Shown here: piece after piece, positions 3,166 through 38,059 of the stretch | Position numbering within the stretch: position 1 is the first letter of the stretch | How the letters are laid out: every line of letters begins with the position of its first letter | The notes under the pieces: model-generated | Seen by the model: the letters and a program-made list of their open reading frames with translations, nothing else | Told to the model about the DNA's origin: nothing | Database searches by the model: none | Assembly (NCBI GenBank): GCA_965368245.1 | Contig: CBDUMD010000003.1 | Span: forward strand, 16,735 to 80,734 | Direction of reading: 5' to 3' | Source: an uncultured Thermoproteales archaeon | GTDB lineage: Archaea; Thermoproteota; Thermoprotei; Thermofilales; B20-G17 | DNA: 64,000 nucleotides | Program-made: the position numbers and the translations under genes

Positions 3166-3341
3166 CCCCACCTTGTTTTACAATATATTGTCATTCCTCA
3201 ATATATAAAAATGTTTCCAAGGATTATTTCATAAATTATACCCAAATATCGTTTAAAACAAATAATACATATTTTACTCCGTTTGCCCTTTTAGGTAACG
3301 ATGTCAACTCAAATACTTGGACAAAACCGGTGATATCTGGG

Positions 3342-4928
3342 ATGTTATTTAAAAGGTTCGTTGAATTCCTTGAGCAGATAGAGTCTAGGAAAAGTAGAAC
3401 CGAGAAAGTAAATTTAATTGTAGATCTTCTTTTGAAGCTTAAACCAGAGGAGATAGCCCCAGCCGTTAGGCTAATGGTGGGCAGAATTTTCCCAGAATAT
3501 TCGGATCTGAGCCTAGATGCAGGATGGTCGTTGATTAGCAAGGCTTTAAAAACCACCCGAAGCGTAAACATGCTTCTTAAAAAGGAGCTCACAGTACTTG
3601 AAGTATACAATTTACTTGAGAAAGTAGCGCAAACCGTGGGTGAAGATTCTCGTCGGAGAAAACAAAGAATATTCGAAAGAATATTTGTGAATCTTGAGGA
3701 AAAAGAAATAGAATATTTGTTTAGAATGATATTTGGCGAACCAAGATTAGGGGCAAACGAGGGACTAGTACTAGAGGCTATAGCTAAGCTTGTTGATGTC
3801 GATGTAAGCAAGGTTAGAAAGGCCTACATGTTCATATCGGATATCGGCCACTTAGCCCATCTTGCCGTAAAAAAGGGAGCAAAGGGAATACTTAACGTAA
3901 ACCTTCAACTTTTCAGACCTGTGAAACCAATGCTTGCAGAAATGGCTCAGGATGTGAGAGAAGCTTTAAAGGAGTGCGGAGGAAGGGCATCCCTTGAATA
4001 CAAGTATGATGGAATAAGGTTGCAGGTTCATAAAAGGGGGAAGGACATCAAGCTCTTCACCCGTAGGTTGACTGATGTGACTGAAAGTCTCCCCGATGTA
4101 GTCAAGCTTGTAGAAGAAAAAGTCCACGCAGACGAGGTAGTATTAGATTCAGAGGCTATAAGCTTCAAAGAAGGAAAGCCAATAAGGTTCCAAGATTTAA
4201 TGCGGAGAATAAGGAGAAAACATGGTATAGAGAAATTAGCTAGAGAAATGCCTTTAACCCTAAAGGTTTTCGACATACTCTACATTGACGGAAAAGTTTT
4301 GGTAGATCTCCCCTATTCGAAACGATGGGAGATTATGACAAAAGTTGTAGACGACGACATCCTGATAGAAAGAATAGTGACAAATGATCTAGAGGAAGCA
4401 AGAAAATTCTTCAATGAAAGCGTAAAGATGGGTAATGAAGGACTAATGGTTAAGCGTATAGATAGCCCATATACTCCAGGTGTAAGAGGCAGGTATTGGT
4501 TTAAGGTGAAACCTTCAGAAACCTTAGATCTAGTCATAGTGGGGGCGGAGTGGGGGCACGGAAGGAGGAAGGGATGGCTGAGTGACTACTATCTTGCAGT
4601 CTTCGATGAAAAAACAAACAAGTTTATGGTAGTCGGTAAAACCTTTAAGGGTTTAAGCGATGAAGAGTTTAAAGAGATGACTAGGAAACTGCTTGCCATT
4701 AAGGTTAAGGAGGAGGGTTGGAGGGTCTGGGTGAGGCCGAAAATAGTTGTCGAAGTAGCGTTCAACGAGATACAGAAAAGTCCTAAATATAAATCAGGGT
4801 ATGCATTAAGGTTCGCCAGAATAGTTAGAATAAGATACGATAAAAGCCCTTATGAAGTAGCAACGCTAGAGACTCTTAGAAAAATCTATGAAAACCAGTT
4901 TAAAAGCAAGGCGAAAATAACTTCTTAG
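3342..4928 (+). CDS. lig: ATP-dependent DNA ligase
   Basis: Adenylation motif I EYKYDGIRLQVH. Also LDSEAI, EGLMVK, YWFKVKP and an OB-fold C-terminus. The track ORF starts at GTG 3330; ATG 3342 (MLFKRFVEFLEQIE) fits the usual ligase N-terminus better. Confidence 0.95.
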   Translation: MLFKRFVEFLEQIESRKSRTEKVNLIVDLLLKLKPEEIAPAVRLMVGRIFPEYSDLSLDAGWSLISKALKTTRSVNMLLKKELTVLEVYNLLEKVAQTVGEDSRRRKQRIFERIFVNLEEKEIEYLFRMIFGEPRLGANEGLVLEAIAKLVDVDVSKVRKAYMFISDIGHLAHLAVKKGAKGILNVNLQLFRPVKPMLAEMAQDVREALKECGGRASLEYKYDGIRLQVHKRGKDIKLFTRRLTDVTESLPDVVKLVEEKVHADEVVLDSEAISFKEGKPIRFQDLMRRIRRKHGIEKLAREMPLTLKVFDILYIDGKVLVDLPYSKRWEIMTKVVDDDILIERIVTNDLEEARKFFNESVKMGNEGLMVKRIDSPYTPGVRGRYWFKVKPSETLDLVIVGAEWGHGRRKGWLSDYYLAVFDEKTNKFMVVGKTFKGLSDEEFKEMTRKLLAIKVKEEGWRVWVRPKIVVEVAFNEIQKSPKYKSGYALRFARIVRIRYDKSPYEVATLETLRKIYENQFKSKAKITS

Positions 4929-6172
4929 TACACCCCTTCATCACAACCTTCTATAAAATGCTTTAAATCCGCTGACCGTGGAGGCCCGTGACTTAAAAGC
5001 CATTCTTTAACCTTTGAGGGACTCCTCAGCTTGCTAATTATATTTAAAACTTCATGGAACAACCCCCTAATATTTTCCTTTACTTCGGGGATGTAGTCTA
5101 AACTTGGAATAACTATGTCACGGTAATGGACTATGAGGTTTCGAGCTTCCTCGAAGCTTATTTTACCTTGAATATAGTGGCTTAAAATGTCCTCCAAGAA
5201 TTCCACAGCTTTTTTACTATCCCCCCGCAAATCCCTCTTCTTTAATTCTCTTGGATTTAAATTATATCTAAGGAGACTGACGGAGGTTTTTGGATACTGT
5301 TCTAAAACCCTTTTTATCTGTTCGTCGACGGGAGGAAGCTTACGAAATCTGCGAGGCGGGGAAGGCTTTGGATAGGCGCCAATAACCTTGTAGGCTTTGT
5401 AGGCTAATGCATCAGCTTCTCCTTCTATATACTTCTTCCAGTCCGGATTATGTCTAGGGGATGTAGGCGAAAGCCAGGATACATCAAAAGAATCGATCTC
5501 CTCTGGCCTAAAAGCTATACATGATATGTCGAGAAACCTATGTAAACTTAATGGAGCCGTAAACACTCTCTGAGGATCCATTAGATTTTCAACTTTAATT
5601 GAAACATTATCCTCTTTATTTATCGTAAACACCTTTTCCCTGATCTTCTTTAAAACATATTCGACAATCGAGTAAGACAAGTCTATCGGATGGATCTTAT
5701 CGTAGACCTCCTTTGAAAAAGCTTTCTCATGTATGTGTATGTGAAGACCCCGTCCAGACCATTTAAGGTAAACCGATCGATAAACACCCTCCTTCTCCAA
5801 GTAGTCTACAATAACCCTAGCAACCTTTAATGTGGTTTTCCACCACTCAAGTCGGCTATCTACATCCCACGTGGGTGTCCTAGCATATATATTATCTATA
5901 TAATTTAGAGCATCATCTTTCTCCTTTAGCTTTAGGTAGAGGCTTGCAGAGCCATAGAAGGTCCTAGGTTGCAGGAACTTAAACTTCTTCATGAAAAAGA
6001 GAAGGTCTCTAGTGCTCGTTATTACCAAGGGTTTTCCCTTATAGTACCTGAGGAGAACGGGAGACCCATTCTTCAATGTTTTTGTACAATGGATCGCGAC
6101 CCATCTATCCTTTAGGAAAGCTATGATCTCCTTTTGTACATCTAGCTTTGAATAGTATTTTAGGCAGTCCAT
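4925..6172 (-). CDS. archaeo-eukaryotic primase (AEP) superfamily protein, PriS-like catalytic core without zinc knuckle, plus helical C-terminal extension
   Basis: Ordered AEP motifs PTWDVDS (DxD), KWSGRGLHIHIH (SGxGxH) and DPQRVFTAPLSLH. PriS-like PRTFYGSASLY lies before motif I. No Cys cluster between motifs I and II. Confidence 0.6.
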   Translation of the reverse strand: MDCLKYYSKLDVQKEIIAFLKDRWVAIHCTKTLKNGSPVLLRYYKGKPLVITSTRDLLFFMKKFKFLQPRTFYGSASLYLKLKEKDDALNYIDNIYARTPTWDVDSRLEWWKTTLKVARVIVDYLEKEGVYRSVYLKWSGRGLHIHIHEKAFSKEVYDKIHPIDLSYSIVEYVLKKIREKVFTINKEDNVSIKVENLMDPQRVFTAPLSLHRFLDISCIAFRPEEIDSFDVSWLSPTSPRHNPDWKKYIEGEADALAYKAYKVIGAYPKPSPPRRFRKLPPVDEQIKRVLEQYPKTSVSLLRYNLNPRELKKRDLRGDSKKAVEFLEDILSHYIQGKISFEEARNLIVHYRDIVIPSLDYIPEVKENIRGLFHEVLNIISKLRSPSKVKEWLLSHGPPRSADLKHFIEGCDEGVY

Positions 6173-6451: not shown

Positions 6452-7495
6452 GTAATTAGAATTAGTGATTCCGAGTATAAAATTATAAAGAATATTCCAA
6501 GAGCGTTACATTACACAAATGTAGCTGAGAATGCTGGCTTCACTGTAGCGTATGTAAGTGTCAAGATAAAGGATCTTCTAAAAAAGATTAAAATTTCATT
6601 TATTCCAAGCTACTGGAAAATGGGGCTAATACCGTCCTTTTTCCTATTTGAAGACCGTGGCTACGACTTAAAGGACTTCAAGAAACCTTATGTAACGACT
6701 ATAGGAAAAGTGTTAGGAGAAAAAGAGTATTTCTTCGTGAAAGCCACCATACCTCAGGAACATCTCGATGAATATGTTGGAATCTTTGGAGCTGAACCTG
6801 AGCTTGGTGAAATCGGGTTAATTGAATATTACTGGGAACCATACTCTCCTTTGACCATTCATAGACGAAATCACCTGGATGTAGACCTAAAGAACTTTAT
6901 AGAAGTTTTCGAGAAGGAGGCTTCTAAGCCCCAGATATTTACTATCACACAAAGGTTGCCCGTAGATGAAATTGATCTATATATTATTAAGGAGAAGATG
7001 AAAAACCCCTTCAAATCATTAACATCTATGGGGAAGATTATAAATCGATCCCAACAGCTAATATCCTACCACTTCCATAAACATGTTTATCCACTATGGG
7101 AACGTAATTCAATTATGATTTTCCAGAATTACTACCGGACACCACTATCCCTACATTTCCTTGAATTTTCCGATACAAAAAGTGCACGCGGTTTTGCAAA
7201 AACCCTTGCCTATCTACCATACACTCATATAGTGCTTCTTTCCACAAGTAGACCCTTCTTAATATATATAGGCACTATTCTACAGGAAAGGGCTTTGGAT
7301 TTAATGAGAATCATTTCACAGTTAAGAAAAAAGGATTATATTAGGTATTATAGGTTCATTGGTTATGTTGATCCCGATTATTTTAAAGAATACACAATAT
7401 CTTTTCGAGGGGTTTTAAGGGCAGGTGTTTGGAGCCTACCAGCTACTAAATCATTGGATGACGTTGCTGAGGAACTTTCATTCCCCCTAGTATAG
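6452..7495 (+). CDS. two-HTH putative transcription regulator, paralog 1 of 3 (start codon unresolved; first ATG is 6620)
   Basis: Track ORF is 6620..7495. The in-frame sequence upstream, open back to TGA 6401-6403, encodes ISDSEYKIIKNIPRALHYTNVAENAGFTVAYVSVKIKDLLKKIKISFIPSYWKMGLIP. This aligns with the N-terminal HTH of the paralogs at 42016-43047 and 58563-59651. Second HTH motif: LISYHFHKHV. Confidence 0.55.
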   Translation, partial: VIRISDSEYKIIKNIPRALHYTNVAENAGFTVAYVSVKIKDLLKKIKISFIPSYWKMGLIPSFFLFEDRGYDLKDFKKPYVTTIGKVLGEKEYFFVKATIPQEHLDEYVGIFGAEPELGEIGLIEYYWEPYSPLTIHRRNHLDVDLKNFIEVFEKEASKPQIFTITQRLPVDEIDLYIIKEKMKNPFKSLTSMGKIINRSQQLISYHFHKHVYPLWERNSIMIFQNYYRTPLSLHFLEFSDTKSARGFAKTLAYLPYTHIVLLSTSRPFLIYIGTILQERALDLMRIISQLRKKDYIRYYRFIGYVDPDYFKEYTISFRGVLRAGVWSLPATKSLDDVAEELSFPLV

Positions 7496-9192: not shown

Positions 9193-10032
9193 ATGTATCC
9201 TATTGTCGAAAAAAGGGTTTTAGCGCCGCGAATAAAGTCGATAAAAGTGAAAGCCCCTCATGTAGCACGTAACGTTAAGGCTGGCCAGTTCGTAGTAGTA
9301 CGTGTCGATGAAAGGGGAGAACGAATCCCACTCACTGTAGTGGACTGGAATAGAAAGGAAGGAACAATATTACTTGTGTTTCAGGAAATAGGGGTAAGCA
9401 CAATAAAACTTGGGTTGTTGAAGGAAGGTGACAATATACTTAATATATCGGGTCCACTCGGCAACCCCACTGAAATCAAAAAATACGGTACGGTCATCTG
9501 TATTGGTGGTGGTGTCGGGACAGCATGTATTTACCCGGTGGCCCGTGAGCTTAAGAAAGCCGGTAACAACGTTATCTCCATAGTAGGAGCAAGAAGCAGT
9601 AACCTGTTAATACTGGAGGAGGAAATAAAGTCAGTTAGCGATGAATTCTACATAACTACTGATGACGGGAGTAGGGGGAGAAAGGGGTTTGTTACGGACC
9701 AACTTAAGGATATTTTGAGGGAGGGACGTAAAGTAGATCTAGTTTATGCAGTTGGTCCCGCAATAATGATGAAGGTCGTGGCAGATGTTACTAGGAATTA
9801 CAATATAAAAACGATCGTGAGCCTTAATCCTATAATGGTTGACGGTACAGGGATGTGTGGTGCCTGCAGAGTTATAGTAGGTGGCCAAATGAAGTTTGCC
9901 TGCGTGGATGGTCCTGAGTTTGATGCCCATGAAGTGGACTTCGATTCACTGATGTCGAGGCTACGCACGTACATTCAGGAAGAAAAGAGGGCTCTAGAGC
10001 TACTTCAAACCAAGGTTAAGGGAGGTGAATAA
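9193..10032 (+). CDS. NfnA/SudB-like FAD/NAD(P)-binding ferredoxin-reductase-type subunit with C-terminal [2Fe-2S] motif
   Basis: 279 aa. GGGVGTACIYPVA nucleotide fold. DGTGMCGACRV...FACVDGPEF cysteine motif. Paired with a GltD-like subunit downstream. Confidence 0.8.
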   Translation: MYPIVEKRVLAPRIKSIKVKAPHVARNVKAGQFVVVRVDERGERIPLTVVDWNRKEGTILLVFQEIGVSTIKLGLLKEGDNILNISGPLGNPTEIKKYGTVICIGGGVGTACIYPVARELKKAGNNVISIVGARSSNLLILEEEIKSVSDEFYITTDDGSRGRKGFVTDQLKDILREGRKVDLVYAVGPAIMMKVVADVTRNYNIKTIVSLNPIMVDGTGMCGACRVIVGGQMKFACVDGPEFDAHEVDFDSLMSRLRTYIQEEKRALELLQTKVKGGE

Positions 10033-10033
10033 C

Positions 10034-11419
10034 ATGGGGCAGAGGAAGATTATACGTGAAGGTACACCCATGAGAAAGCTTAGCTTAAAGGAGCGTAGAA
10101 CAACGTTCAAAGAGGTTGCGCTTGGATACAATCTTGAGGAAGCTTTAAGGGAGGCGGAAAGATGTCTTCAATGTCCCCAACCACCCTGTGTTAAAGCCTG
10201 CCCCCTGCACATAGATATTCCCGGATTTATACGGCTGTTAAAAGAAAGACGTTTTGAGGAGGCTATAGAAAAGATAAAGGAAACGAACGAGTTTCCAGCC
10301 ATAACGGGTAGAGTATGTCCACAGGAACTCTTATGCCAGGAAGTTTGTGTTATGAAGAGAATAGGAGATCCCGTTTTCATAGGTAGATTAGAAAGGTTTC
10401 TGGGAGACTATGAGATAAAGAAAGGGATAAAGGTTCCAGAAAAAATAGTGGAGAACGGTAAAAGCGTCGCTATAGTTGGTTCAGGGCCAGCAGGTCTATT
10501 CGCTGCCGCCAGACTTAGAAAACTGGGATACAAGGTGACAATCTATGAGGCTTTACATAGACCGGGAGGAGTGATGGTCTACGGTATACCTGAGTTTAGG
10601 CTTCCAAGACATGTTCTCGATGCATACATAAACTACCTGAGGAAACTTGGTGTAGAAATTAAAGTAGATCACGTGGTCGGTAAGGCTGTCACCGTGGCCG
10701 AACTCCTCAAAGAATACGACGCCGTCTTGATATCAACCGGTGCCGGTACACCACGGTTCCTGAGAATTCCCGGTGAAGAGTTAAACGGAATATACTCGGC
10801 AAACGAGTTTCTGATAAGAGTCAACTTAATGAAAGCATACCGCTTCCCCGATTACGATACCCCAATTAAAGTAGGCAAACGTGTTGTAGTGGTGGGCGGA
10901 GGAAACACAGCTATGGATGTGGCACGCATTTCGCTTAGACTAGGAGCTGAAGTCACAATAATTTACAGGAGAACTGAAAAAGAAATGCCAGCAAGGAGAG
11001 AGGAAGTGGAGAACGCCATGGAGGAAGGTGTCAAGTTCCAGTTCCTGACCCAACCAATAGAATTCATAGGAGATGAAAAAGGCTGGGTAAAGAAAATACG
11101 TTGTATAAAAATGAGGTTAGGGGAACCTGATGAAAGCGGTAGGAGAAGACCCATACCCATACCTGGAAGCGAGTTCGAGATAGAGGCAGATACAGTAGTA
11201 ATAGCCATAGGAGCCTCCGTAAACCCGATAATCCAAGCAACAACACCTGGACTAAAAGCAGATAGAAAAGGCAGAATAATAGTCGATGAGAATGGACGTA
11301 CCTCACTTGATAGAGTATACGCGGCAGGAGACGTAACCTCCGGCGAGGGGACAGTAATAGAGGCCCTCGCAGAAGCCTTAAAGGCGGTGAACAGCATCCA
11401 TAGAGATCTTGAAAGCTAA
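10034..11419 (+). CDS. NfnB/SudA-like (glutamate synthase small-chain family) NAD(P)H oxidoreductase subunit
   Basis: Two Cys clusters (CLQCPQPPCVKACP, RVCPQELLCQEVC). GSGPAGL and VVVVGGGNTAMD dinucleotide folds. GGAGGTGA SD 6 nt upstream of ATG 10034 (track start is GTG 10025). Confidence 0.85.
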   Translation: MGQRKIIREGTPMRKLSLKERRTTFKEVALGYNLEEALREAERCLQCPQPPCVKACPLHIDIPGFIRLLKERRFEEAIEKIKETNEFPAITGRVCPQELLCQEVCVMKRIGDPVFIGRLERFLGDYEIKKGIKVPEKIVENGKSVAIVGSGPAGLFAAARLRKLGYKVTIYEALHRPGGVMVYGIPEFRLPRHVLDAYINYLRKLGVEIKVDHVVGKAVTVAELLKEYDAVLISTGAGTPRFLRIPGEELNGIYSANEFLIRVNLMKAYRFPDYDTPIKVGKRVVVVGGGNTAMDVARISLRLGAEVTIIYRRTEKEMPARREEVENAMEEGVKFQFLTQPIEFIGDEKGWVKKIRCIKMRLGEPDESGRRRPIPIPGSEFEIEADTVVIAIGASVNPIIQATTPGLKADRKGRIIVDENGRTSLDRVYAAGDVTSGEGTVIEALAEALKAVNSIHRDLES

Positions 11420-12484: not shown

Positions 12485-13699
12485 TTAGGTGGATGTATAT
12501 CTCGAGTAGTGAAGAGCTGTAAGGCTTCCTGTTAATGCTTCTATGAAGCATTTGAATGCTTTGTATGGGCTCTTATAGGGGTTAAAGTATCCGTGGACCA
12601 TGCCGGCGGGACCTGTTTTAGTGGACATGTAATAGAAATGATCTGAAGTAAGAAACATACGCCACAGCTTGCTACACTTCTTTTTCTCAAATATTTTCCT
12701 CGATTTTAGTAGGGAGTTAAAAGCTAGCTTTTGCATTTCGTTTCCAAGCCATGCCGACTCATCCTTTTCCTTGTCGGCCCATGAAACCACACGTTCGAAG
12801 AATATTTCATCTGCTGGCTCAAAGTATTCTAATATCTCACTTGGATGCAGAAGCTTCACACCTCTCTTCTTTAGTTCCCTTGGAAGCCACCTTAGGAACT
12901 CAAGTATACCGGTTTCTTGTTTAAAATGTTCACCGAAAGTTTCGATGTCGAAACCTATAACCACGAATTCGCCTGGCAGATTCCTTATCCAACTTGCATA
13001 TTTATCTGCCGTCAACGGAAATTGGCTCCACGATCTGTCTCCAAACCGGAATCCAATATCATCCGACAATTGACAATGCCGTAGCAGTATCTTTAAATTA
13101 CTATTGTGTGCTGTGTAAAGAAAAGTGGGGCTCCTCCAGCCTAGAATCCCTTCAACACCCTCAGTTATAGTAGCTGTGAAACCCATTTCCTCCAATAGAT
13201 CAGCTAATGAATCTGCATAAAGCCCTTCGGTGTTGAAGGCTATTTTCGGCTTTTTACCGAAAAATTCCCTAATTATTTTAAGAGAGTCCTTCATCTCTTG
13301 GCGGAAGACATCCTCACCTGCAAATATCGCCAATGAATGGTGGTAGGGCTCGCATAGAAATTCAATTAACTGGATTGAAGATGCTTGTTGAAGAACCTCT
13401 AGAACATCAGATCTTGTCTCCCTAAGAAACTCAAGAAGGATGCCTGAAACAGATAGGGATATCTTTAACTCTTCTTCCATTATGGTATTTAGTACAGGTA
13501 GGTAGCATTTGTCACTTATCCTGTTTAAAATTCTTTTATCTAGATCTTTATCAAATAATAGATCCATCAACATCGATTCATCAGCATCTCTAATCTCCGT
13601 GGAGTATAGTAGCCTTTCAAAAACCCCCTCTCTTATACGCCTTGGCTGATGCATCTCCATGAATATTGTTAGATATTGGACCATTGGTTTCAATAACAA
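12485..13699 (-). CDS. glycoside hydrolase family 57 (GH57) alpha-glucan-active enzyme
   Basis: N-terminal MEMHQPRR and FDIETFGEHF motifs resemble the GH57 HQP and E..FG.H catalytic regions. Located in an alpha-glucan gene cluster. Confidence 0.65.
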   Translation of the reverse strand: MLLKPMVQYLTIFMEMHQPRRIREGVFERLLYSTEIRDADESMLMDLLFDKDLDKRILNRISDKCYLPVLNTIMEEELKISLSVSGILLEFLRETRSDVLEVLQQASSIQLIEFLCEPYHHSLAIFAGEDVFRQEMKDSLKIIREFFGKKPKIAFNTEGLYADSLADLLEEMGFTATITEGVEGILGWRSPTFLYTAHNSNLKILLRHCQLSDDIGFRFGDRSWSQFPLTADKYASWIRNLPGEFVVIGFDIETFGEHFKQETGILEFLRWLPRELKKRGVKLLHPSEILEYFEPADEIFFERVVSWADKEKDESAWLGNEMQKLAFNSLLKSRKIFEKKKCSKLWRMFLTSDHFYYMSTKTGPAGMVHGYFNPYKSPYKAFKCFIEALTGSLTALHYSRYTST

Positions 13700-13714
13700 G
13701 CAAAATAATTAAAT

Positions 13715-14938
13715 TTATTTTTCTTTCTCGGGAATCCTCTTCCATAAGTGTTTCCAGTCTTTTTCCTTCGCCTCCTTAGATATGGATCTATACACCTCCA
13801 ATGTGAAACGAGCTATCCTATCCCATGTATATAGTTTCTTCACCCTCTTTCTCGCATTTACGCTCATTAAATCCCTTAACTGCGTGTCGTCGAGAAGCTG
13901 ACGTATTCTCTCTGCGATTTCACGTGGATCAAGGGAAATCTTAAACCCCTCTACTCCATGCCTTATGATTTCACTGGGACCGCCGTGGCGTGGCACGATA
14001 ACAGGTAGTCCGCAACTCATGGCCTCTAGGATGGCTATTCCGAATGGTTCATATCTACTCGGAAAAACACCTACATAGGATACCTTCATCAATGAGAAAA
14101 GCTCTTTATCACTTATTCTACCGGTAAAGTAAACCTTATCCCTTAAACCGTATTTATGGACCATTGACACCAAATGTTCTCTCATAGGTCCGTCACCTAC
14201 TATAACTAGTTTTACATCGCCACGTTTAAAGTCGTTGATAAGGATGTTGAATGCTTCGACAAGCAGGTCGGGCCCTTTCTCGTAGACATGTCTTCCCACG
14301 AAGACAATTATTTTCTCGTGAGGGGAAGCATATTTCTCCTTTAAACCTGGCTCGGGCTCAAATCTTTCAATATCACTTAATTCTATGGCGTTAGGTATTT
14401 TAACTATTTTTTCTGGAGGTAGCATAAACACTCTGCCCACTTCACCAATCATATAGTCACTACAGACCACAACCTTCCACGACTCGTACGTTACCCTCCA
14501 CTCCCAGTCATGGATTATCCTTTGGTCTTCGCTCCATATTCCGCCTCTACGACCTATTTCAGTGGCATGTATCGTTGTTACAAGAGGCACTTTCAAAACA
14601 TGTTTCAAAATTATCCCACTATAGGCTGTCAGCCAATCATGTACATGTATTACATCCGGTTCTCCCACCTCATCCACGAGTTCAAGAACCTTAACTATCA
14701 TAAGATAGTTAAAATTTAAAATCCATGTAATGAAGTCAATAGACTTTAAGGTGAAGGGATCAACCCTATGTACCTTTACTCCCTCAATGTTCTCGAAGCC
14801 CCTTCCCTCGACATCCGTAGTTATCACATGAACGTCGGCTCCAAGTTTTGCCAGATACTTGGTTAAATAAAAAACATGTCTCCCAAGCCCGCCGACGATA
14901 TTGGGAGGATACTCCCATGTAATATGAAAAATCTTCAT
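13715..14938 (-). CDS. GT-B fold glycosyltransferase, family 4 type (glycogen-synthase-like)
   Basis: N-terminus KIFHITWEYPPNIVGGLGRHV. C-terminal EPFGIAILEAMSCGLPVIV (E-x7-E motif). Confidence 0.8.
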   Translation of the reverse strand: MKIFHITWEYPPNIVGGLGRHVFYLTKYLAKLGADVHVITTDVEGRGFENIEGVKVHRVDPFTLKSIDFITWILNFNYLMIVKVLELVDEVGEPDVIHVHDWLTAYSGIILKHVLKVPLVTTIHATEIGRRGGIWSEDQRIIHDWEWRVTYESWKVVVCSDYMIGEVGRVFMLPPEKIVKIPNAIELSDIERFEPEPGLKEKYASPHEKIIVFVGRHVYEKGPDLLVEAFNILINDFKRGDVKLVIVGDGPMREHLVSMVHKYGLRDKVYFTGRISDKELFSLMKVSYVGVFPSRYEPFGIAILEAMSCGLPVIVPRHGGPSEIIRHGVEGFKISLDPREIAERIRQLLDDTQLRDLMSVNARKRVKKLYTWDRIARFTLEVYRSISKEAKEKDWKHLWKRIPEKEK

Positions 14939-15516
14939 GATCTACCACCGGCCACCCTAAGGTAAGCATTGTAAACGTCCCTTATACTGCTATATTTTAT
15001 CACCTTCTTGCCGAATCTTTCCCTCAAGTCGTCGAAAAGCTTTTCATGGTGACAGAGAATGAGATCAGCTTTCCTAAAGAGGTATGTTTCAACGCTTTCA
15101 ATACTTAGGCTTAACATGTTATCCATATTTGATCTCATCTGTTCGGTGGAGTATATACTTAAAATAAACGGTTTTTTAAAGGCCCTAGATAACGCTAGGG
15201 CTATCATCCCAGCTATCCAGTCATGTCCATGAATAAGTGGAAAGTCTCTGTAGGAAAGAAAGTATGGAAGCTTAGTCAACGCCCCATAGACCAGTTCATG
15301 CGAATAAACTATAAAATTGCCCCTCAGGTACCCTGTATCACGGAACATGATTACCTCGATATCATCGTCTTTATATTGTTTATTTTCAGGACCTGGATGG
15401 ACAACTACAGGTCTACAGAATACCCTTAGGTTTCTAACTATTTCCTGAACTTTCCAAGCCAATTCGCCTATTATCCTGAAAGGAGGATATTCCCATGAGA
15501 CATGAAGAATTATCAT
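14935..15516 (-). CDS. stand-alone GT-B N-terminal (acceptor) domain paralog of the adjacent glycosyltransferase
   Basis: MIILHVSWEYPPFRIIGELAWKV and HGHDWIAG parallel MKIFHITWEYPP..GGLGRHV and HVHDWLTA of the 407-aa neighbour. No C-terminal nucleotide-sugar domain. ATGA overlap with the downstream gene. Confidence 0.6.
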   Translation of the reverse strand: MIILHVSWEYPPFRIIGELAWKVQEIVRNLRVFCRPVVVHPGPENKQYKDDDIEVIMFRDTGYLRGNFIVYSHELVYGALTKLPYFLSYRDFPLIHGHDWIAGMIALALSRAFKKPFILSIYSTEQMRSNMDNMLSLSIESVETYLFRKADLILCHHEKLFDDLRERFGKKVIKYSSIRDVYNAYLRVAGGRS

Positions 15517-15526
15517 GACAAAAGCC

Positions 15527-15763
15527 CTAACAAAAGATGCTATTCAGCTTGAATATAGCCTGTTTAGTTAAATACGCTTTTTCGTTTTCGGAAACTACAT
15601 AACCTAGAGAAGAAAGTTCATTCAACAGGCTTTTCAATTCACTTGTTGATAGACCAGTAAATTTAGATAGAAGAGAAAGGGAAGTAGCCTTTTCTCGGCT
15701 TACCGCCGAAAGAGAAAATAAAGTGCTAAGGATCTTCATTAAACGTGACTCGAAATTCTCCAC
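15527..15763 (-). CDS. small winged-helix protein, possible cluster regulator
   Basis: 78 aa. LSLLSKFTGLSTSELKSLLNELSSLGYVVSE looks like HTH plus wing. First gene of the minus-strand glucan operon. Confidence 0.35.
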   Translation of the reverse strand: MENFESRLMKILSTLFSLSAVSREKATSLSLLSKFTGLSTSELKSLLNELSSLGYVVSENEKAYLTKQAIFKLNSIFC

Positions 15764-15981
15764 TTATTAACACCAAGTATTTCTCTATCTCCCCCCTAAA
15801 ATAGCTTTTTACAGTTACTAAATGCTTTCATCAAAATCCTTTAGTGCTCTTTGCTGGTTCCAGAACAACAGGCATAAATTGTATGTTCTTTTTCACTTTT
15901 AGGTGGGGGACGCCGATTACCTCATGGAGTACGAAAGTGAAACTTTTTATACCTTAGTTAAGGCATATTCCCGGAGGTTTA

Positions 15982-17751
15982 ATGAAAGTTTTCCTGAACT
16001 TCAGCGACGTTGCTTATTTCCCCGATGAAGAGATCCTCTTCAGAATTAACGTGCGAGGGGCCAAACAGGGGGAAACCGTACACTTTAAAGTGTTAAAAGA
16101 CTCTACGAAAGAAGTTTTCTCCCAAGATTACTATATACCTTTACCTGAATTTTTCATAGAGGATTCCCTGGAAAGCCTAGAGGAAGGTTTTTACGATGCA
16201 TATGTCATATGGAATGACCTCGTTACCTCGCTACCTTTCGTCGTCTTATCTCCTGATAGAGTTAAGGGTAAACTGCTTACAGTCTTCCACAACCATCAGG
16301 CATTAAATAAATATCCCAACGGAATCTACCATAGCCCTTGGGCTTTTACACACACCTGGGAGGATGAGTTTAAACCCTATTATCGTGGAGGAGTATATTT
16401 TCTCCATACATTTCTACTAGAGAAAAAACCTGTTAAAATCTGCTTTAACTTGTCGCCTAGTCTTCTACTTCAATGGAAGGAGGCCGTCGAGAAAGGAGTT
16501 TTACTGGAATGGGACAGTAATATAGAATATGTTTCACCGAAAGATGAACGTGTACAGATAATTAAAGATACTTTAAGTGGATATAGACGTTTAAACAGAG
16601 AAAATGTCATCGAAATATTCTCAAGTTTTTTCGCGCATCCAATAGCTGGTTACCTAATCGACCATTATGGATGGTTGGATATAGTTGAAGAAGAAGTGAA
16701 GCTGGGAGCCGAAGTAACAAAAAGTATTTTGGATACTGAGGCTCAAGGCTTCTGGGTTTCCGAACTCTTCTTCTCAATGAAGCTGGTTCCAGTACTCTCT
16801 AAATATAATTACAGGTATATTGTGCTTGACTCCCTCCACCATTTCATTGAATCTTTAGGAGATAAGAGGACTCCTTACGAGCCGTACAAGGTTGAATATG
16901 GCGGAGGAGAGCTTATAGTCTTTTTCAGAGACACTAGCCTCTCGGACTACATTAGCTTCCAGCTAAACAAGGCAAAGAGCCTACAGGAGGCAGATGCAAA
17001 CGCCAGAAGATACACTCTAAATATTTTAAAGTTGATGATGGGCGACGAAGAAAAGATAGTTACTGTCGCATTGGATGGTGAAAACTGGATGATTTTACCG
17101 CATCCATCACCAAAAGCAGCTGTAGCTTACGAAAAACTACTTACATATATTTTGTCCTGCGAGAGAAAAGGATACTTTAAATGCGTCCTAGCAAGAGAGG
17201 TAGCCGATTTAGCAGAAAGAAAGCTTAAAAAAATACCGGCCACAACGTGGCTAGGAAGTATAGCTAAATGGACAACAGAGAGACCAGCCGTGCAAGGTAG
17301 GCTTTGGAAGCTCGCTGAACAGGCATACAATCTACTAAAGATCTATGAAGAGATCTTCAGCAAAGAAGAAAAATACGGGCACCTGCTCCACTGTATAATG
17401 CAGATTCTGGACAGCGACATGTACTGGACCGAGTTCATAAATGAAGACCATGTCGTTTCATGGTACAATGAATTAACGGAAAATATTCTTCCAAAATTGA
17501 ATCTATTAAGGGTGAAAAGGATCGAAAAAGAAAATGGAGATGTATTCGTGGAAATTGAAAGCCCTTTAAGAGGAGAGATAATACTAAGGATACAGGTAGA
17601 TGGTACAAAAATGTTGCAAAAGATCGTGAAACTAAACGCCGGTATAAATATCTTTAAAGAAAGCATCCAGGGAAACGTTGTTGAAGCCAGAATTTTAACC
17701 CCTATTTCCCTTTGTCCAATAGGAAAACCGGTATACGCACGGTGTAGATAG
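15982..17751 (+). CDS. GH57 family glycoside hydrolase with N-terminal extra domain
   Basis: LTVFHNHQALN and VTVALDGENWMIL match the GH57 HNHQP and DGEN-W regions as I recall them. Confidence 0.7.
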   Translation: MKVFLNFSDVAYFPDEEILFRINVRGAKQGETVHFKVLKDSTKEVFSQDYYIPLPEFFIEDSLESLEEGFYDAYVIWNDLVTSLPFVVLSPDRVKGKLLTVFHNHQALNKYPNGIYHSPWAFTHTWEDEFKPYYRGGVYFLHTFLLEKKPVKICFNLSPSLLLQWKEAVEKGVLLEWDSNIEYVSPKDERVQIIKDTLSGYRRLNRENVIEIFSSFFAHPIAGYLIDHYGWLDIVEEEVKLGAEVTKSILDTEAQGFWVSELFFSMKLVPVLSKYNYRYIVLDSLHHFIESLGDKRTPYEPYKVEYGGGELIVFFRDTSLSDYISFQLNKAKSLQEADANARRYTLNILKLMMGDEEKIVTVALDGENWMILPHPSPKAAVAYEKLLTYILSCERKGYFKCVLAREVADLAERKLKKIPATTWLGSIAKWTTERPAVQGRLWKLAEQAYNLLKIYEEIFSKEEKYGHLLHCIMQILDSDMYWTEFINEDHVVSWYNELTENILPKLNLLRVKRIEKENGDVFVEIESPLRGEIILRIQVDGTKMLQKIVKLNAGINIFKESIQGNVVEARILTPISLCPIGKPVYARCR

Positions 17752-17753
17752 CT

Positions 17754-19274
17754 ATGGGTAATACAGGGATTATAGTTAGCGTCACCCCTGAAATAGCTTT
17801 AGAAGAGGGATATACTTATGCAGGAGGTTTAGGTGTACTTGAAGGAGACAAATTCTATACTGCAGGCGACTTAGGTATAAGATATTTAGTCTTAACCCTC
17901 TTCTATGAAAACGGTTATGTTGATTATGATTTTAAAGAAGATGGCTCTCCCATCCCTAGACCTCAACCCCAGCCAGACAACTTTTTAAGCCATCTTCAAA
18001 GCAAGGGTAAAATTTCTGTTAAGGTGAGAGGAGAAAATGTTCTGCTTGAAGCATTCTCCTACAAGTACAAGACCGCAGAAACCATCTTCTTCCATCCTAT
18101 CCAGCTAGGCTGGGTCCACAATCTAGTAGATAAATTATACATTGAAGAGCATTACGAAGATCGGTTCTACAAGTATGTATTGCTCGCCAGGGCTTCTGCA
18201 GAATACATTAGAACTCATGTGACACTAAATAGGGTAAGTAAAATAATTTTAAATGAAGCCTACACCGCACTTCTACCACTTGTGTTACGTGCCCCAGAAA
18301 AGTACATTTTTATAATACACACTCCGGGACCCTGGGGGCATCCAATATTTCCGGTAGAGCTTTTTGAAAGGGAATTCGGATTTAAATTTATTTCAGAAAA
18401 AGTATCCCTGACGGAAATAGGTTTAGCGGCATCCACTAAAACATACACTGTATCTAGAAAACACTTTAAGGTAATGCAGAAAATAATACCGCACTTTGCC
18501 CACCAGCTATCCTACGTGACAAACGGTGTTAGTCTGTCTCGTTGGATGACAGACCATATTAAGAAATTGATCTCCAAGGGTTGTTTAAACACGAAATCCC
18601 TGGCAACGGCTAAGCAAGAGGCTAGAGAAAAGCTACTAAAATTCATAAGAGCAAGGAAAAAGTTGAATTCAACAAACAAGCCGATAATCGTTTGGAGTCG
18701 AAGAATAACAAGATACAAGAGACCATATTTCATCACTAGGATTATAGAAGAGGACCCTGACGCGATATTTATAGTTGCAGGTAAAGCCCATCCATATGAT
18801 GTAGAGGGTTTACGTTACATGAAAAAGTTCCGTCAATACCACATGGAAAAGCCATCTGTGATCTACATACATGATTACGATGTCGACAAAGCTAGGCTTC
18901 TACTGAGCGGAGGAGACCTCCTGTTGTTCACGCCCTTTCCGTCATGGGAAGCTTGCGGAACAAGTTTTATGAAAGCTGGGATAAATGGTGTGCCAAGCCT
19001 CGCATCCCGAGACGGCGGAGTCTTGGAGTTAATAGAGGACGGTGTAAATGGCTGGTTATTTGGTAGAAACGAAGAGAGACTAGTAGACCCTCAAACACCT
19101 GAAGGCACCAAACTAGACGAAAAAGAATACAAGGAATTTAAAAGCAAACTCCTAAAAATTATTGATTTAATTAACAACAACGAAGACGATTATCTTAAAG
19201 TAGCTTTAAGAAGCATCAAAACATTTATACCGAAAGTAGACATGAAAGAGAAAATAAGATACTTCATAAAGTGA
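17754..19274 (+). CDS. short alpha-glucan (glycogen/maltodextrin) phosphorylase, GT35-like
   Basis: N-terminal PEIALEEGYTYAGGLGVLEGDKFYTAGDLG. C-terminal WEACGTSFMKAGINGVPSLASRDGG resembles the PLP-lysine motif EASGTS.MK..NG. Confidence 0.7.
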   Translation: MGNTGIIVSVTPEIALEEGYTYAGGLGVLEGDKFYTAGDLGIRYLVLTLFYENGYVDYDFKEDGSPIPRPQPQPDNFLSHLQSKGKISVKVRGENVLLEAFSYKYKTAETIFFHPIQLGWVHNLVDKLYIEEHYEDRFYKYVLLARASAEYIRTHVTLNRVSKIILNEAYTALLPLVLRAPEKYIFIIHTPGPWGHPIFPVELFEREFGFKFISEKVSLTEIGLAASTKTYTVSRKHFKVMQKIIPHFAHQLSYVTNGVSLSRWMTDHIKKLISKGCLNTKSLATAKQEAREKLLKFIRARKKLNSTNKPIIVWSRRITRYKRPYFITRIIEEDPDAIFIVAGKAHPYDVEGLRYMKKFRQYHMEKPSVIYIHDYDVDKARLLLSGGDLLLFTPFPSWEACGTSFMKAGINGVPSLASRDGGVLELIEDGVNGWLFGRNEERLVDPQTPEGTKLDEKEYKEFKSKLLKIIDLINNNEDDYLKVALRSIKTFIPKVDMKEKIRYFIK

Positions 19275-34342: not shown

Positions 34343-35008
34343 CTATTTCATCCATCCCTGGCTTCTGAGAAAACTAATTATCCTACTTATACTTAATGCC
34401 CCCTCCCTTAAAATTATTAGACTCCCGTCATTCAACACCTTAATGATGGTCGATGGTTTTTTAAGCTCTGTTTCACCCGCATCTATCACAAGGTCTACCA
34501 TTTCATCCAACTGATCTATGGCTTCTTTAGCAGTAATGGGGCTTTTTCTTCCGGAAATGTTAGCGCTTGTTCCAGTTAATAACCCCCCGCAATCTTTAAT
34601 CAGTGTGAGAGCTACCTTGTTCTTAGGTATACGGAAACCGTTTTCCATGGTTCCAGAATGAATGAGAGGGGAAATCGGAGTTCTATCTCGTAGGGGGAGG
34701 ACAAGGGTTAAGGGGCCCGGCCAAAATTTTCTTGCTAGGGTTAATGAATACTTGTTAAAGACAGCTATCTCCATAACTTTTTCGATGCTGGAAGCTAGAA
34801 GAGGTATGTGTTTTCCTGGGGGTCTCTTCTTTACTTTAAGTATTCTTTCTACAGCTTTATCTGAAAAAGGGGTGGCCCCTAAACCGTAAACGGTATCCGT
34901 TGGAAAAACAACTAACCCTCCTTTCTTTACAGTTTCAACCGCGATTTTAAGTTTTTCTTGTAGATCTTCTTCCGTTGTTATCCTTATTACTTGAGGTATA
35001 GTAATCAC
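34343..35008 (-). CDS. L-threonylcarbamoyladenylate synthase (Sua5/YrdC/TsaC family, YrdC domain only)
   Basis: VVFPTDTVYGLGA, PLTLVLP and TSANISG motifs. Confidence 0.85.
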   Translation of the reverse strand: MITIPQVIRITTEEDLQEKLKIAVETVKKGGLVVFPTDTVYGLGATPFSDKAVERILKVKKRPPGKHIPLLASSIEKVMEIAVFNKYSLTLARKFWPGPLTLVLPLRDRTPISPLIHSGTMENGFRIPKNKVALTLIKDCGGLLTGTSANISGRKSPITAKEAIDQLDEMVDLVIDAGETELKKPSTIIKVLNDGSLIILREGALSISRIISFLRSQGWMK

Positions 35009-36857
35009 CCATCCTTTCTAAAGCATATAATAGTTTTTCTTGAAGCTCGTTCTCCTTTTCCCGCAGTCTATCAAAATAGTCTAAGAATTCGCTTTTAACT
35101 GTTTCCACAACTTCTTGGGGGTTAACGCCTTTCTCGGGGATCTGTGCCAAGAAGCTTTCTATTTTTCCGCGCACCTCAGGATTAACTATCTCTGGCACAA
35201 CCTCCTTTAACGATAATATGAGGGCTTTCCCCAGCTCCGTGGGGATACATTTTTTGCCTTTAACCAGCATGTATTTTCTCTTTATATTCGTGTATATGTG
35301 CTCCTGCATTGTAGCATCTGTACCTATACCATAGATTTTCATTAACCTTAGTAGTTCAGCTTCACTTAAGTGGGGAGGAGGTGTAGTGGTTTTCTGAAGC
35401 ATGTTAACATTCAGGATTTCATAAACTTCACCTTTCTGGAACAACCCTAGATCCTTCTCCTTAGGTCTTTCAAAAGGAAATATCCTATAGTACCCCTCAT
35501 TTAGTACCCTTAATCCCTCCATTCTAAAGGGAAACCCGCCAGCCTTTAACGTGATAATCTGGCTTTCTACAACTGCCGGGTCACTTAAAGTAGCAAGGAA
35601 GTGGCGTACAATATAATCATAAATTTTCGCTGCCTTAACACCGAACCGTGATCTAACGTCCTCTAATCTAACGCTTTTAACAGGGTATATGGGGGGATGA
35701 GCTTTATCGTCCTCCCTTCCCCTAGTGGGAACTAGCTTATATTTGGCGAGAACGTATCTCTCTACATAATCTCCGTAATGTGGGTTTCGTATAAACATTT
35801 TAGCGAGATTTCTCAAGTTGAGGGTTGGGGGATAAATGGTGGTCTCTGTTCTCGGGTAGGAGATTAAACCATGCCTATAAAGTTCCTCTGCTATAGTTAA
35901 TGTCTCTTTGGAGCGTATATTAAGAAATCTACTGCAGTTCCTCTCTAACTCGATGGTGTTTAAGGGTACAGGAGACCTTTTTATACGTTTCTTGTAAACT
36001 GCTTCAACAACCTCGACAAAGGATGATTTTCTAAGTTTTTCAAACATCTGAAGCGCTATTTTTCTGTCAAATATTTTTTCTCCTGCATAAAGTGCCCGGT
36101 ATGTTTCTCCTCTCTTCCTAAAAAATAATTCAAATGTATAGTACTTTTTCTTCTTAAAGTTCTCCCTTTCCAATTCCCTTTTTACAACGAAGTAGAGTAC
36201 AGGTGATTGACAGGGACCGTAGCTCAAGAACATTCCCTTTGGGAAAACTTTTTTCTTTTCAACAGTCAAGGTTAAAAATCTTGTGAATGCTGCACCTATA
36301 GTCAGGTCAATTATCATGCGTGCAAATACTTTGTTAGCTAAAAGCGGGTTAGGGTCTCTTAGGTTTTGAAAAGCCTCCAGAATATCTTTTCTTGTTAGAG
36401 CAGAAAACCACGCTCTCTTGAAAACCGCCTTTGGATTGACTTTCCGTATTACGCTCATAGCCTCAAAGGCTATGGCTTCACCTTCCACGTCAGCGTCTAA
36501 TGCCAAAACAACGAATCTCGATATTCGACCTAATAGTTCTAGCGCCCGAACGTATTCTCTGTTTTCAGGTATGACCACCCTAATAGGCGTCGTGAAGAAT
36601 AATACTCTAGGATCCACGTTTCTCCAAGAATTGTATTTTCTATGGAAGTCATAGTTCATTAGGTGTCCTTTAAGCCCTATACATACCCATGTCTTGTTTC
36701 TCCTGGAAAAAATGTATAGCGGAATCCTGCCTATGTTTCTCACGAAAATTCTGCCTTCGGCGAGAAAACTCGAAATTGCTTTGGCTACACTGTTTTTTTC
36801 TGCGACAACAAGGACATCGATTTTTCTCAGAACTTTGTATTTGTCATTATTCTTCAT
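34947..36857 (-). CDS. type IA DNA topoisomerase (archaeal topoisomerase III-like)
   Basis: Toprim VLVVAEKNSVAKAI and LALDADVEGEAIAFE. Active-site Tyr motif LISYPRTETT. Confidence 0.9.
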   Translation of the reverse strand: MKNNDKYKVLRKIDVLVVAEKNSVAKAISSFLAEGRIFVRNIGRIPLYIFSRRNKTWVCIGLKGHLMNYDFHRKYNSWRNVDPRVLFFTTPIRVVIPENREYVRALELLGRISRFVVLALDADVEGEAIAFEAMSVIRKVNPKAVFKRAWFSALTRKDILEAFQNLRDPNPLLANKVFARMIIDLTIGAAFTRFLTLTVEKKKVFPKGMFLSYGPCQSPVLYFVVKRELERENFKKKKYYTFELFFRKRGETYRALYAGEKIFDRKIALQMFEKLRKSSFVEVVEAVYKKRIKRSPVPLNTIELERNCSRFLNIRSKETLTIAEELYRHGLISYPRTETTIYPPTLNLRNLAKMFIRNPHYGDYVERYVLAKYKLVPTRGREDDKAHPPIYPVKSVRLEDVRSRFGVKAAKIYDYIVRHFLATLSDPAVVESQIITLKAGGFPFRMEGLRVLNEGYYRIFPFERPKEKDLGLFQKGEVYEILNVNMLQKTTTPPPHLSEAELLRLMKIYGIGTDATMQEHIYTNIKRKYMLVKGKKCIPTELGKALILSLKEVVPEIVNPEVRGKIESFLAQIPEKGVNPQEVVETVKSEFLDYFDRLREKENELQEKLLYALERMGDYYTSSNKDNNGRRSTRKT

Positions 36858-38059
36858 CAGCTTCTTTTCCTCTTTCTTGCTCCTTTCTCCCTAACCGCAC
36901 GGATACCTACATGAAAGAGTTTTCTAAATATGGCGTCAATGAATTTAACGTATGAACCGCCTTGACCTAGAAATGCTCCTATTCCTTCACCCGTTAAACC
37001 TACTTGAAATTCAGGTCCCACGAAGTCCACGGTCTTAATGTGTTTTCCTATCCAGCTTACAGGATGCACTGCAGTTATAAGTCTACTAAAGTCCAGTGTC
37101 AACTCTACTGCTCTTAAACGGAATCCCGTCTCCTTTTCGATTAAATGTATTCTTTCACCTTTTCTACCTACAAGCCTACCTAAGCTACCTTCTTTAACTA
37201 TTATCAAAGCATCTGGAACCACTTCACTGGTAATGTCAAAATCCTTCTTCTCTTTAGTCATTTCAATTACAGTTAATATTTCTGCGTCCGGGGCCCTGAT
37301 TTTAGCTATATCAAGGATGCTTTTTTCGATGTTATTTAGCTTCCTCTTTAATATCCTTAGTTCGAGGGCGAGCTTGATTCCCCTCTTCGCGCCGGGTCTC
37401 ACTATGTCGGAGAGACCTAGGTCGATTACTATAGCTTTTTCTTCGCCCATTAAAACTTCACGTATAAGAGTTGCTCCATCTACTTCCACGGTTGGATCTC
37501 GCTGAAAAACAGGGTCTCCAGCCACCACGAGTTTAGAGTTCCTTCCAATACGCATAATTATTTCCGCAACTATCTCAGGGTATGTGGATTGGACGTCGTC
37601 GAGAAATATAATCGACTCGTCAAACGTTCTTCCCCGAAGGAAATGCGAATCAGCTATCACTATTTTTCCTTCGTCGATGAGTTTTTGTAGATCTTTTTGG
37701 GAAAATATGCCAGCTAAGACGTCCTCTAGATACGAGTAAACAAGTTTATAGTAAAGGTCACCCACCTCCAGCGCGGTAACTTCTTTGCCGGTACGTACGT
37801 CGACAACTGGTCGTGCAAGTATAAATCTCCTATATTCTCCTTTAAGCACTGCGTCAATAGCGTAGACGCAGGAAAGAAGGCTTTTCCCGGTCCCGGTCGG
37901 ACCAAATACGCCTACAATCTCGTATTCTTTACTTTTTAAGGCATTGAGCAGGACTTCTTGTCCAGCACTCATGGGCTTTACTTTCTCTATTATTCCTGCC
38001 ATCGACCGCCACCTAAAAGGAGTATCTAAATGCTCCATTAAACTAGCTATATGCTTCAA
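36857..38059 (-). CDS. PhoH-like P-loop ATPase with C-terminal KH domain
   Basis: GPTGTGKSLLS, ARPVV, IIFLDDVQS and VVAGDPVFQRD (PhoH pattern). C-terminal GRLVGRKGERIHLIEKETGF (KH GxxG). TGATG overlap with the topoisomerase start. Confidence 0.8.
   Translation of the reverse strand: MKHIASLMEHLDTPFRWRSMAGIIEKVKPMSAGQEVLLNALKSKEYEIVGVFGPTGTGKSLLSCVYAIDAVLKGEYRRFILARPVVDVRTGKEVTALEVGDLYYKLVYSYLEDVLAGIFSQKDLQKLIDEGKIVIADSHFLRGRTFDESIIFLDDVQSTYPEIVAEIIMRIGRNSKLVVAGDPVFQRDPTVEVDGATLIREVLMGEEKAIVIDLGLSDIVRPGAKRGIKLALELRILKRKLNNIEKSILDIAKIRAPDAEILTVIEMTKEKKDFDITSEVVPDALIIVKEGSLGRLVGRKGERIHLIEKETGFRLRAVELTLDFSRLITAVHPVSWIGKHIKTVDFVGPEFQVGLTGEGIGAFLGQGGSYVKFIDAIFRKLFHVGIRAVREKGARKRKRS

Follow-up and report, generated by a model that had tools for sequence, protein, structure and literature searches.

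An unannotated family of PriS-related primase-like proteins in TACK and Asgard archaea

The gene and its catalytic domain

The stretch analysed here, hereafter the window, comprises 64,000 nt of a contig from an uncultured Thermoproteales archaeon (CBDUMD010000003.1, positions 16,735 to 80,734 of the forward strand). One of its open reading frames (ORFs), which starts with ATG on the reverse strand and specifies a product of 415 amino acids (aa), had been described in an initial annotation as an atypical primase-like gene from the superfamily of archaeo-eukaryotic primases (AEPs), meeting a DNA ligase gene stop to stop. The product is a 100% match to RLE67314.1, a protein of a Thermoprotei metagenome-assembled genome (MAG) and, judging from the sequence, the gene is a real, conserved AEP in which every catalytic residue is present. 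The three AEP motifs follow one another in order at the places claimed for them (TWDVDS, WSGRGLHIHIH and ENLMDPQRVFTAPLSLH; Table 1), and the compact core would use a DxD / SGxGxH / D..R..P.SLH active site for two-metal nucleotidyl transfer.

Table 1. Features of the primase-like gene and of its convergent neighbour (window coordinates)
Feature	Coordinates	Strand	Basis
Whole gene: 415-aa T-clade member of the unannotated PriS-related AEP family	4925..6172	-	ORF, homologues, AlphaFold, Foldseek
AEP catalytic domain, aa 1-270, including the N-terminal YYS..V..EI..F...RWVA.HC module	5363..6172	-	Foldseek, hhalign, sequence comparison
Motif I TWDVDS, aa 101-106; D103 and D105 form the metal-binding DxD	5855..5872	-	W102, D103, D105 invariant in 85/85
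Motif I-II interval, Cys-free, without the canonical PriS zinc knuckle	5762..5854	-	Cys positions, family count
Motif II WSGRGLHIHIH, aa 138-148; S139, G140, G142, H144	5729..5761	-	Invariant in 85/85
Motif III ENLMDPQRVFTAPLSLH, aa 195-211; E195, N196, D199, R202, S209, H211	5540..5590	-	Invariant in 85/85
Low-confidence basic, proline-rich linker, aa 271-281	5330..5362	-	pLDDT <50 at aa 272-278
T-clade-specific helical C-terminal domain, aa 282-400, LEDILSHY ... WLLSHGPP	4973..5329	-	Domain model, no fold match
C-terminal DLKHFI, PIP-box-like [LIM]xx[FYW][FYWLIMT] after a basic stretch; putative PCNA-binding tail	4952..4969	-	Inferred from the motif
TTAG: interlocked stops, TAA (-) of the primase-like gene and TAG (+) of the convergent ligase gene	4925..4928	.	
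ATP-dependent DNA ligase; neighbour only, outside any conserved unit	3330..4928	+	Pfam, NCBIfam

Conservation was read from 85 full-length homologues in GTDB genomes, representing all three clades of the family described below, and the catalytic residues listed in Table 1 are the same in every one of them, including the acidic residues whose conservation the initial annotation had left to be checked. Motif I and the core catalytic residues were also invariant in a separate homologue alignment (A1). The window protein contains only four cysteines (C3, C29, C218 and C410, one of them in the tail), with none between motifs I and II (aa 106-137) and no CxxC pair, and therefore has no zinc knuckle. 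This absence had been noticed at the outset for the single protein; it turned out to be a property of the family, the motif I-II interval being Cys-free in 81 of the 85 members, whereas aligned canonical PriS sequences have Cys-rich inserts at the matching place. In other respects the motifs resemble those of PriS. That is, the SGRGxH spacing of motif II is identical to that of Pyrococcus PriS (YSGRGYHIRI), and motif III parallels the PriS pattern D-x2-R-x4-P-x-[ST]-L-H, as in Pfu DIKRILRLPSTLH.

No significant match to the window protein was obtained in Pfam, NCBIfam (none of whose primase models was matched), PADLOC or PHROGs, and sequence searches of the PDB with the protein itself and with a 27-sequence family profile returned no primase. 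The fold was more informative. An AlphaFold model built on the 27-sequence family alignment had a mean predicted local distance difference test score (pLDDT) of 92.3, and comparison of this model with the PDB by Foldseek gave 60 matches at E ≤ 1e-3, of which the best 50 were all AEP primases or polymerases. The matches listed included human, yeast, Pyrococcus and Saccharolobus PriS, M. smegmatis Prim-PolC, LigD polymerase domains and the Methanocella polymerase of non-homologous end joining (NHEJ). The best superpositions were with compact cores of bacterial type (6sa1, 5op0 and 2fao; template modelling (TM) score on the target 0.54-0.57, root-mean-square deviation 4.9-5.6 Å), while superposition on PriS was weaker (TM score on the target 0.35-0.45). 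In the viral structure library BFVD, matches were mostly to generic primases.

The convergent ORF encodes an ATP-dependent DNA ligase (PF01068 with E = 3e-55, plus PF04675 and PF04679; the NCBIfam ligase models agree). The interlock of the primase-like TAA with the ligase TAG is real, but it does not set this gene pair apart: of the gene pairs that converge in the window, eight in all, three share an overlap (4, 29 and 30 nt) and two have a gap of 5-8 nt, so that overlapping convergent stops are common in the window and the one shared with the ligase gene is not special.

Family, clades and relatives

A word-indexed search retrieved 192 homologue clusters at E ≤ 1e-3, in none of which was a Pfam domain precomputed. 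The members are named 'hypothetical protein' throughout at NCBI, and a single UniRef entry, from Infirmifilum lucidum, is labelled 'DNA primase small subunit'. An exhaustive HMMER search of 1.84 billion representative proteins yielded 238 matches at E ≤ 1e-3, of which 79 passed E ≤ 1e-30, with canonical PriS beyond the reach of the family profile; as far as sequence comparison extends, the family is small and isolated. In 185,579 GTDB species genomes (one genome per species) we located 293 encoding stretches. The hosts are Thermofilaceae and other Thermoprotei, Culexmicrobium/Methanomethylicia/Culexarchaeia, many Bathyarchaeia, and Njord-, Baldr- and Odinarchaeota together with other Asgard MAGs, and the isolate names in the record titles point to hydrothermal sediments and hot springs as their habitats. 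Identity to the query in the core is 35-57% across phyla. No family match was found among 50,697 phage records, 72,556 plasmids or the 2.9 million contigs of IMG/VR, and our literature search found no paper describing the family. By these sequence comparisons, the family is distinct, conserved, multi-phylum, chromosomally encoded and previously unannotated. The suggestion that the gene could be a lineage-specific divergent PriS does not agree with this distribution over several phyla and three clades.

The three clades, termed T, S and M, were resolved in a neighbour-joining tree of the AEP domain. Clade T, to which the window protein belongs, comprises proteins of ~400-434 aa with a helical tail containing LEDILSHY and WLLSHGPP; members of clade S (~285-315 aa) lack a tail and end in RLDQQIxEWLKKF; and those of clade M (~450-494 aa) have a different tail (GRFQVMALLQAARYY ... 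FGLNRAIFYAWAK ... PVRD.F). At least five genomes have two members, and the combination is always M plus T or S, as seen (loci being cited by our L numbers) in Thermofilaceae co1_150 (L006 and L072), Njord B6_G17 (L018 and L040), Methanomethylicia JZ-1_bins_15 (L037 and L042) and Thermofilaceae S146 bin.032 (L020 and L070), and at L066, where both genes lie within ~4 kb. The presence of two family members in these genomes argues against simple orthology. A degraded M-like branch was also recognized (proteins P0176, P0180, P0187, P0193, P0199, P0210, P0224 and P0254). P0176 is without the DxD and the motif II His, and in P0254 the AEP core was undetectable, yet the branch retains the M tail with E-values of 1e-54 to 1e-68, a pattern which suggests a non-catalytic, possibly regulatory, subunit.

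Profile comparisons with hhalign aligned the family core with the DPANN-type fused PriS-PriL primases at E = 2e-43 (243 columns) and with 130 canonical crenarchaeal PriS sequences at 96.8% probability and E = 2e-10 (209 columns), the fused primases and canonical PriS matching each other at E = 6.5e-19. This order, combined with the PriS-type motifs, places the family on the PriS side, beside the monomeric primases of DPANN archaea, the Fe-S domain being either missing or substituted. The predicted structure and the sequence comparisons together support an enzyme of AEP fold that lies towards PriS within the superfamily, and the primase-like identity first proposed for the gene is borne out both by this alignment with canonical PriS and by the Foldseek matches listed, which were AEPs only.

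By sequence, the closest known system is the DPANN primase of the Nanoarchaeum equitans NEQ395 type, represented among the weaker matches of the exhaustive search by fused PriS-PriL proteins of 405-460 aa that pass both PF01896 and PF04104 (HMMER E = 1e-8 to 1e-11 in the whole library). Common to both are the N-terminal YY.R.DVQE.I..F...RE/WV module, the motif order and the lack of a zinc knuckle. However, the fused primases have the PriL Fe-S domain (PF04104, with four Cys) where the window protein has an unrelated helical tail, their motif II reads SGSRGFH instead of SGRGxH, and their hosts are DPANN archaea instead of TACK and Asgard thermophiles. Canonical PriS (PF01896, and PF20873 in Crenarchaeota) shares the AEP fold, a detectable core homology, the D..R....P.SLH pattern of motif III and an FYxS element ~25 aa before motif I (compare PMC12770985). 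It differs in that the window protein has no Zn knuckle, no helical/beta subdomain and no PriS C-terminal domain, and in that the family has up to two members per genome, no priL or gins51 neighbour and a much higher conservation across phyla. Clustering with orthodox crenarchaeal PriS, which the initial annotation had held out as the ordinary outcome, was not what we found: all full-length canonical PriS retrieved have PF01896, whereas the window protein matched neither PF01896 nor PF20873 even at E = 1.

The NHEJ polymerases (LigD-Pol, Prim-PolC and Methanocella Pol) are closest in structural superposition and also have compact AEP cores without a Zn finger. Unlike them, the window protein gave no match to PF21686 and has neither a Ku partner nor a co-transcribed ligase, and it has a PriS-type motif III, an extra N-terminal module and a C-terminal helical domain. 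The plasmid and phage primase-polymerases pRN1 ORF904, RepB', NrS-1 and PolpTN2 similarly join an AEP core and a helical domain in one chain (PMC10250227, PMC3973330), but the family is chromosomal and without a fused helicase, and no similarity was detected between the tail of the window protein and PriL-CTD, PriX or solved helix-bundle domains. The gene does not belong with orthodox PriS, with the LigD-type polymerases or with the enzymes of the Prim-Pol clade. Six larger proteins of 940-1290 aa, likewise weak matches of the exhaustive search (P0221, P0242, P0251, P0255, P0256 and P0265), have a related zinc-less PriS-like N-terminal core, in most cases with a PriL-like domain and variously with an MCM P-loop, a DUF3987 helicase, a winged helix or an intein (P0256); these are presumably mobile-element primase-helicases.

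The C-terminal tail and possible roles

The tail had been described as helical and free of recognizable motifs, and nothing known has been matched to it since. In the model it is helical from ~aa 282. Modelled alone, the T tail reached a pLDDT of 89.7, and its comparison with PDB folds by Foldseek gave no match better than E = 1.4 and none to PriL-CTD or PriX. Alignment by hhalign detected no similarity of the T tail to the M-clade tail or to the PriL-like region (probability 0.2% for the latter), nor of the M tail to PriL-like domains, and Pfam gave no match of the window protein to PF04104 or PriCT. The T-tail profile matched, among the fetched proteins, family members only, and the matches in the exhaustive search that were confined to the C-terminal domain were short fragments or M-clade tails. 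By analogy with the helix-bundle/PriL-like domains of other single-chain AEPs, the helical domain would hold the initiating nucleotide or the template.

The end of the tail may serve for attachment to PCNA. A motif [LIM]xx[FYW][FYWLIMT], situated after WLLSHGPP and a basic stretch, was present in 27 of 34 distinct T-clade tails, mostly as KLDEFF (DLKHFI in the window protein), where 1.3 would be expected from shuffled tails. Compared with the canonical PCNA-interacting peptide (PIP) box, Qxx[LIM]xx[FY][FY], it is without the Gln. Some M tails have ends of QxxLxxLL/LF type, e.g. QMTLDSLL and QATLDELF, and S proteins end in IxEWL. The AEP core of a T-clade protein would then be followed by a flexible basic linker, a clade-specific helical bundle and a C-terminal LDEFF-like tail, which probably docks on PCNA.

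The single strong neighbourhood association concerned the S clade, where the gene immediately upstream on the same strand codes, at ~24 loci, for a 267-aa single-domain KaiC/RadA-like ATPase (PF06745, E = 2e-55). The two genes abut or overlap by a few bases, and the arrangement, found in Bathyarchaeia and some Methanomethylicia (L029:9184-10849; also, among others, L030, L034, L045, L052, L053, L061, L073, L075, L077, L078 and L082), looks like a conserved two-gene operon. Canonical priS often adjoins gins51 or priL (PMC2861644, PMC3189178, PMC12680538). Neither of these, nor any other replisome gene, stood beside a family member of any clade in the window or at 86 related loci.

With about as much confidence as doubt, we regard the window protein as an accessory, probably PCNA-tethered, chromosomal primase-polymerase. 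Its likely roles would be to fill gaps, to process ends or to prime DNA anew where it is damaged or stalled, and the S-clade operon with the KaiC/RadA-like ATPase is a link to DNA transactions that speaks for such an accessory function. We favour coexistence of the family with canonical PriS/PriL. The pairing of an M protein with a T or S protein in single genomes suggests an additional system more readily than the replacement of a core gene, there are published reports of canonical primases in Baldr-, Njord- and Odinarchaeia (PMC12680538, PMC12770985), classes in which the GTDB scan also found the zinc-less AEP family, and the family looks too sparse, from the numbers of stretches and representatives given above, to serve all Bathyarchaeia. 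Raymann et al. (PMC3914693) surveyed 142 archaeal genomes and report that the majority have PriS and PriL.

Several observations weigh against an accessory enzyme, and most of them would suit a replicative primase catalytic subunit, that is a divergent PriS that has replaced the canonical one, with the M paralogue or the helical tail standing in for PriL. No canonical PriS or PriL was found in the scanned ORFs of the 64-kb window or in ~1.18 Mb of flanking sequence at the 86 loci, though this says little because only about one chance occurrence would be expected there. Database searches that started from fragments of S. solfataricus PriS and went on to a 10-sequence profile reached, among the 120 matches listed, no group beyond Sulfolobales, Desulfurococcales and Fervidicoccales. 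The DPANN fused primases, to which the family is most closely related, act in replication and are indeed sole replicative primases (PMC10250227), and the family looks consistently present in genomes and MAGs of Thermofilaceae, as a core gene would be. Further, the putative PCNA binding rests on a short motif without the canonical Gln and missing from the cultured Infirmifilum and Thermofilum members, and the T-clade gene of the window has no conserved repair-gene neighbour. The homology to PriS, with PriS-like motifs II and III, and the UniRef label of the I. lucidum member could also be cited for a replacement of PriS. Nevertheless, this main alternative appears unlikely. In addition to the Asgard classes reported to have canonical PriS/PriL and the low count of family members, neither priL nor gins51 nor any other replisome gene is syntenic with the family; cultured Infirmifilum, among the named matches, apparently has the T form only; and the identity of the core across phyla, here 45-50%, is unlike that of the fast-evolving PriS (~30% within Crenarchaeota). 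Less probable again is a second priming system of thermophilic TACK and Asgard archaea, free of both Fe-S and zinc, in which T or S would be catalytic and M would be accessory in the manner of PriL, with the KaiC/RadA-like protein as a motor in the S lineages and a takeover of replication in Thermofilaceae conceivable. Such a two-subunit arrangement would explain why M accompanies T or S and why the M-like branch could lose its catalytic residues and yet keep its tail.

It seems improbable that the gene belongs to an integrated mobile element as its replication primase, domesticated or resident, and has been transferred horizontally among thermophilic archaea without a host function. The family is patchy across phyla with unusually high identity, its remote relatives are fused to MCM-like/DUF3987 helicase domains or contain an intein, as in element-borne primase-helicases, and AEPs are common on archaeal plasmids (PMC5862659). 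However, the phage, plasmid and IMG/VR collections and PHROGs gave no match, the neighbours are housekeeping genes in a synteny that is stable within Bathyarchaeia and Infirmifilum, neither an integrase nor a tRNA gene nor repeats lie beside the gene in the window, and all catalytic residues are strictly conserved. More doubtful still is an NHEJ-type repair polymerase partnered with the adjacent ligase, as LigD-Pol is with LigD-Lig, for which the best superpositions (LigD-Pol, Prim-PolC and Methanocella NHEJ polymerase), the abutting ligase gene and the location of NurA and HerA genes 2.5-5 kb upstream of the AEP gene in I. lucidum could be invoked. The two genes of the window are convergent and not co-transcribed, PF21686 was not matched, no Ku was seen among the scanned window ORFs or the Pfam-annotated genes of six related loci, and the ligase is of the ordinary replicative Lig1 type according to NCBIfam. 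Moreover, outside the window the two genes are neighbours in the closest relative alone, L004, where a 331-aa gene separates them, the only other ligase being that of L076 at ~2 kb; this is local synteny, and a functional partnership with the ligase was rejected since the adjacency is not conserved. Finally, motif III ends in SLH as in PriS, whereas that of LigD-Pol ends in S-x-R.

The usual account gives archaea a single cellular primase, PriS-PriL, with the addition of PriX in some Crenarchaeota; AEPs beyond it have mostly come from plasmids and viruses, or are represented by the rare Methanocella NHEJ polymerase. The present family is conserved and chromosomal, occurs in four or more TACK lineages and in several of the Asgard group, and has been invisible to Pfam, NCBIfam and PGAP naming. 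If it comprises accessory primase-polymerases, archaea would have in it a counterpart of PrimPol-type damage tolerance, and it would be a candidate component of double-strand-break and fork-restart pathways, which in hyperthermophiles are poorly understood. Should it have replaced PriS in Thermofilaceae, a core gene supposed to be universal in archaea would have been displaced there.

Neighbouring genes and other parts of the window

At the other loci, the neighbours of the family members were unrelated housekeeping or transport genes. In I. uzonense (L001:9421-11200) and I. lucidum (L084:9415-11203), a house-cleaning NTPase of the inosine/xanthosine triphosphatase type (PF01931) is encoded 40-50 nt upstream on the same strand. 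This NTPase-AEP pair is interrupted in Infirmifilum sp. CP182482 (L085:3072-3599 and 10001-11197), where ~6.4 kb of inserted DNA includes toxin-antitoxin genes. Genes related to tRNA also occurred as neighbours, namely TYW1-like radical SAM genes (L006, L011, L020 and L023), TyrRS (L054, L062, L067, L081, L009 and L010), tRNA-Thr-ED (L016-L018) and a MiaB-like gene. Their recurrence was judged compatible with chance and with shared ancestry or inherited synteny, and they were dropped as a functional link. A small ORF downstream of the gene in Culexarchaeia (c58) was considered as a possible Gins51 and rejected, having no Pfam match and no resemblance by eye.

Three ORFs of the window (6620-7495, 42016-43047 and 58563-59651) are weakly similar to each other (~27% identity), the 343-aa member having a helix-turn-helix of AsnC type. 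The copy at 6620-7495 is located just upstream of the primase-like gene on the opposite strand, and a homologue is kept in L004. Farther away, a DNA end-resection cluster extends over positions 51846-58449, with NurA (51846-53063) and an Mre11-like metallophosphoesterase (54554-55699) identified by Pfam, and with ORFs of 497 and 919 aa that are candidates, by position, for HerA and Rad50. On the reverse strand at 34947-38059, a gene for a PhoH-like ATPase with KH domains (400 aa) is directly followed by one for a type IA topoisomerase (Toprim and Topoisom_bac, 636 aa), the topoisomerase start codon overlapping the ATPase stop codon. The window also holds a glycogen/starch cluster (12485-19274) coding for two GH57 proteins, a GT4/starch-synthase-like glycosyltransferase and a phosphorylase-like protein.

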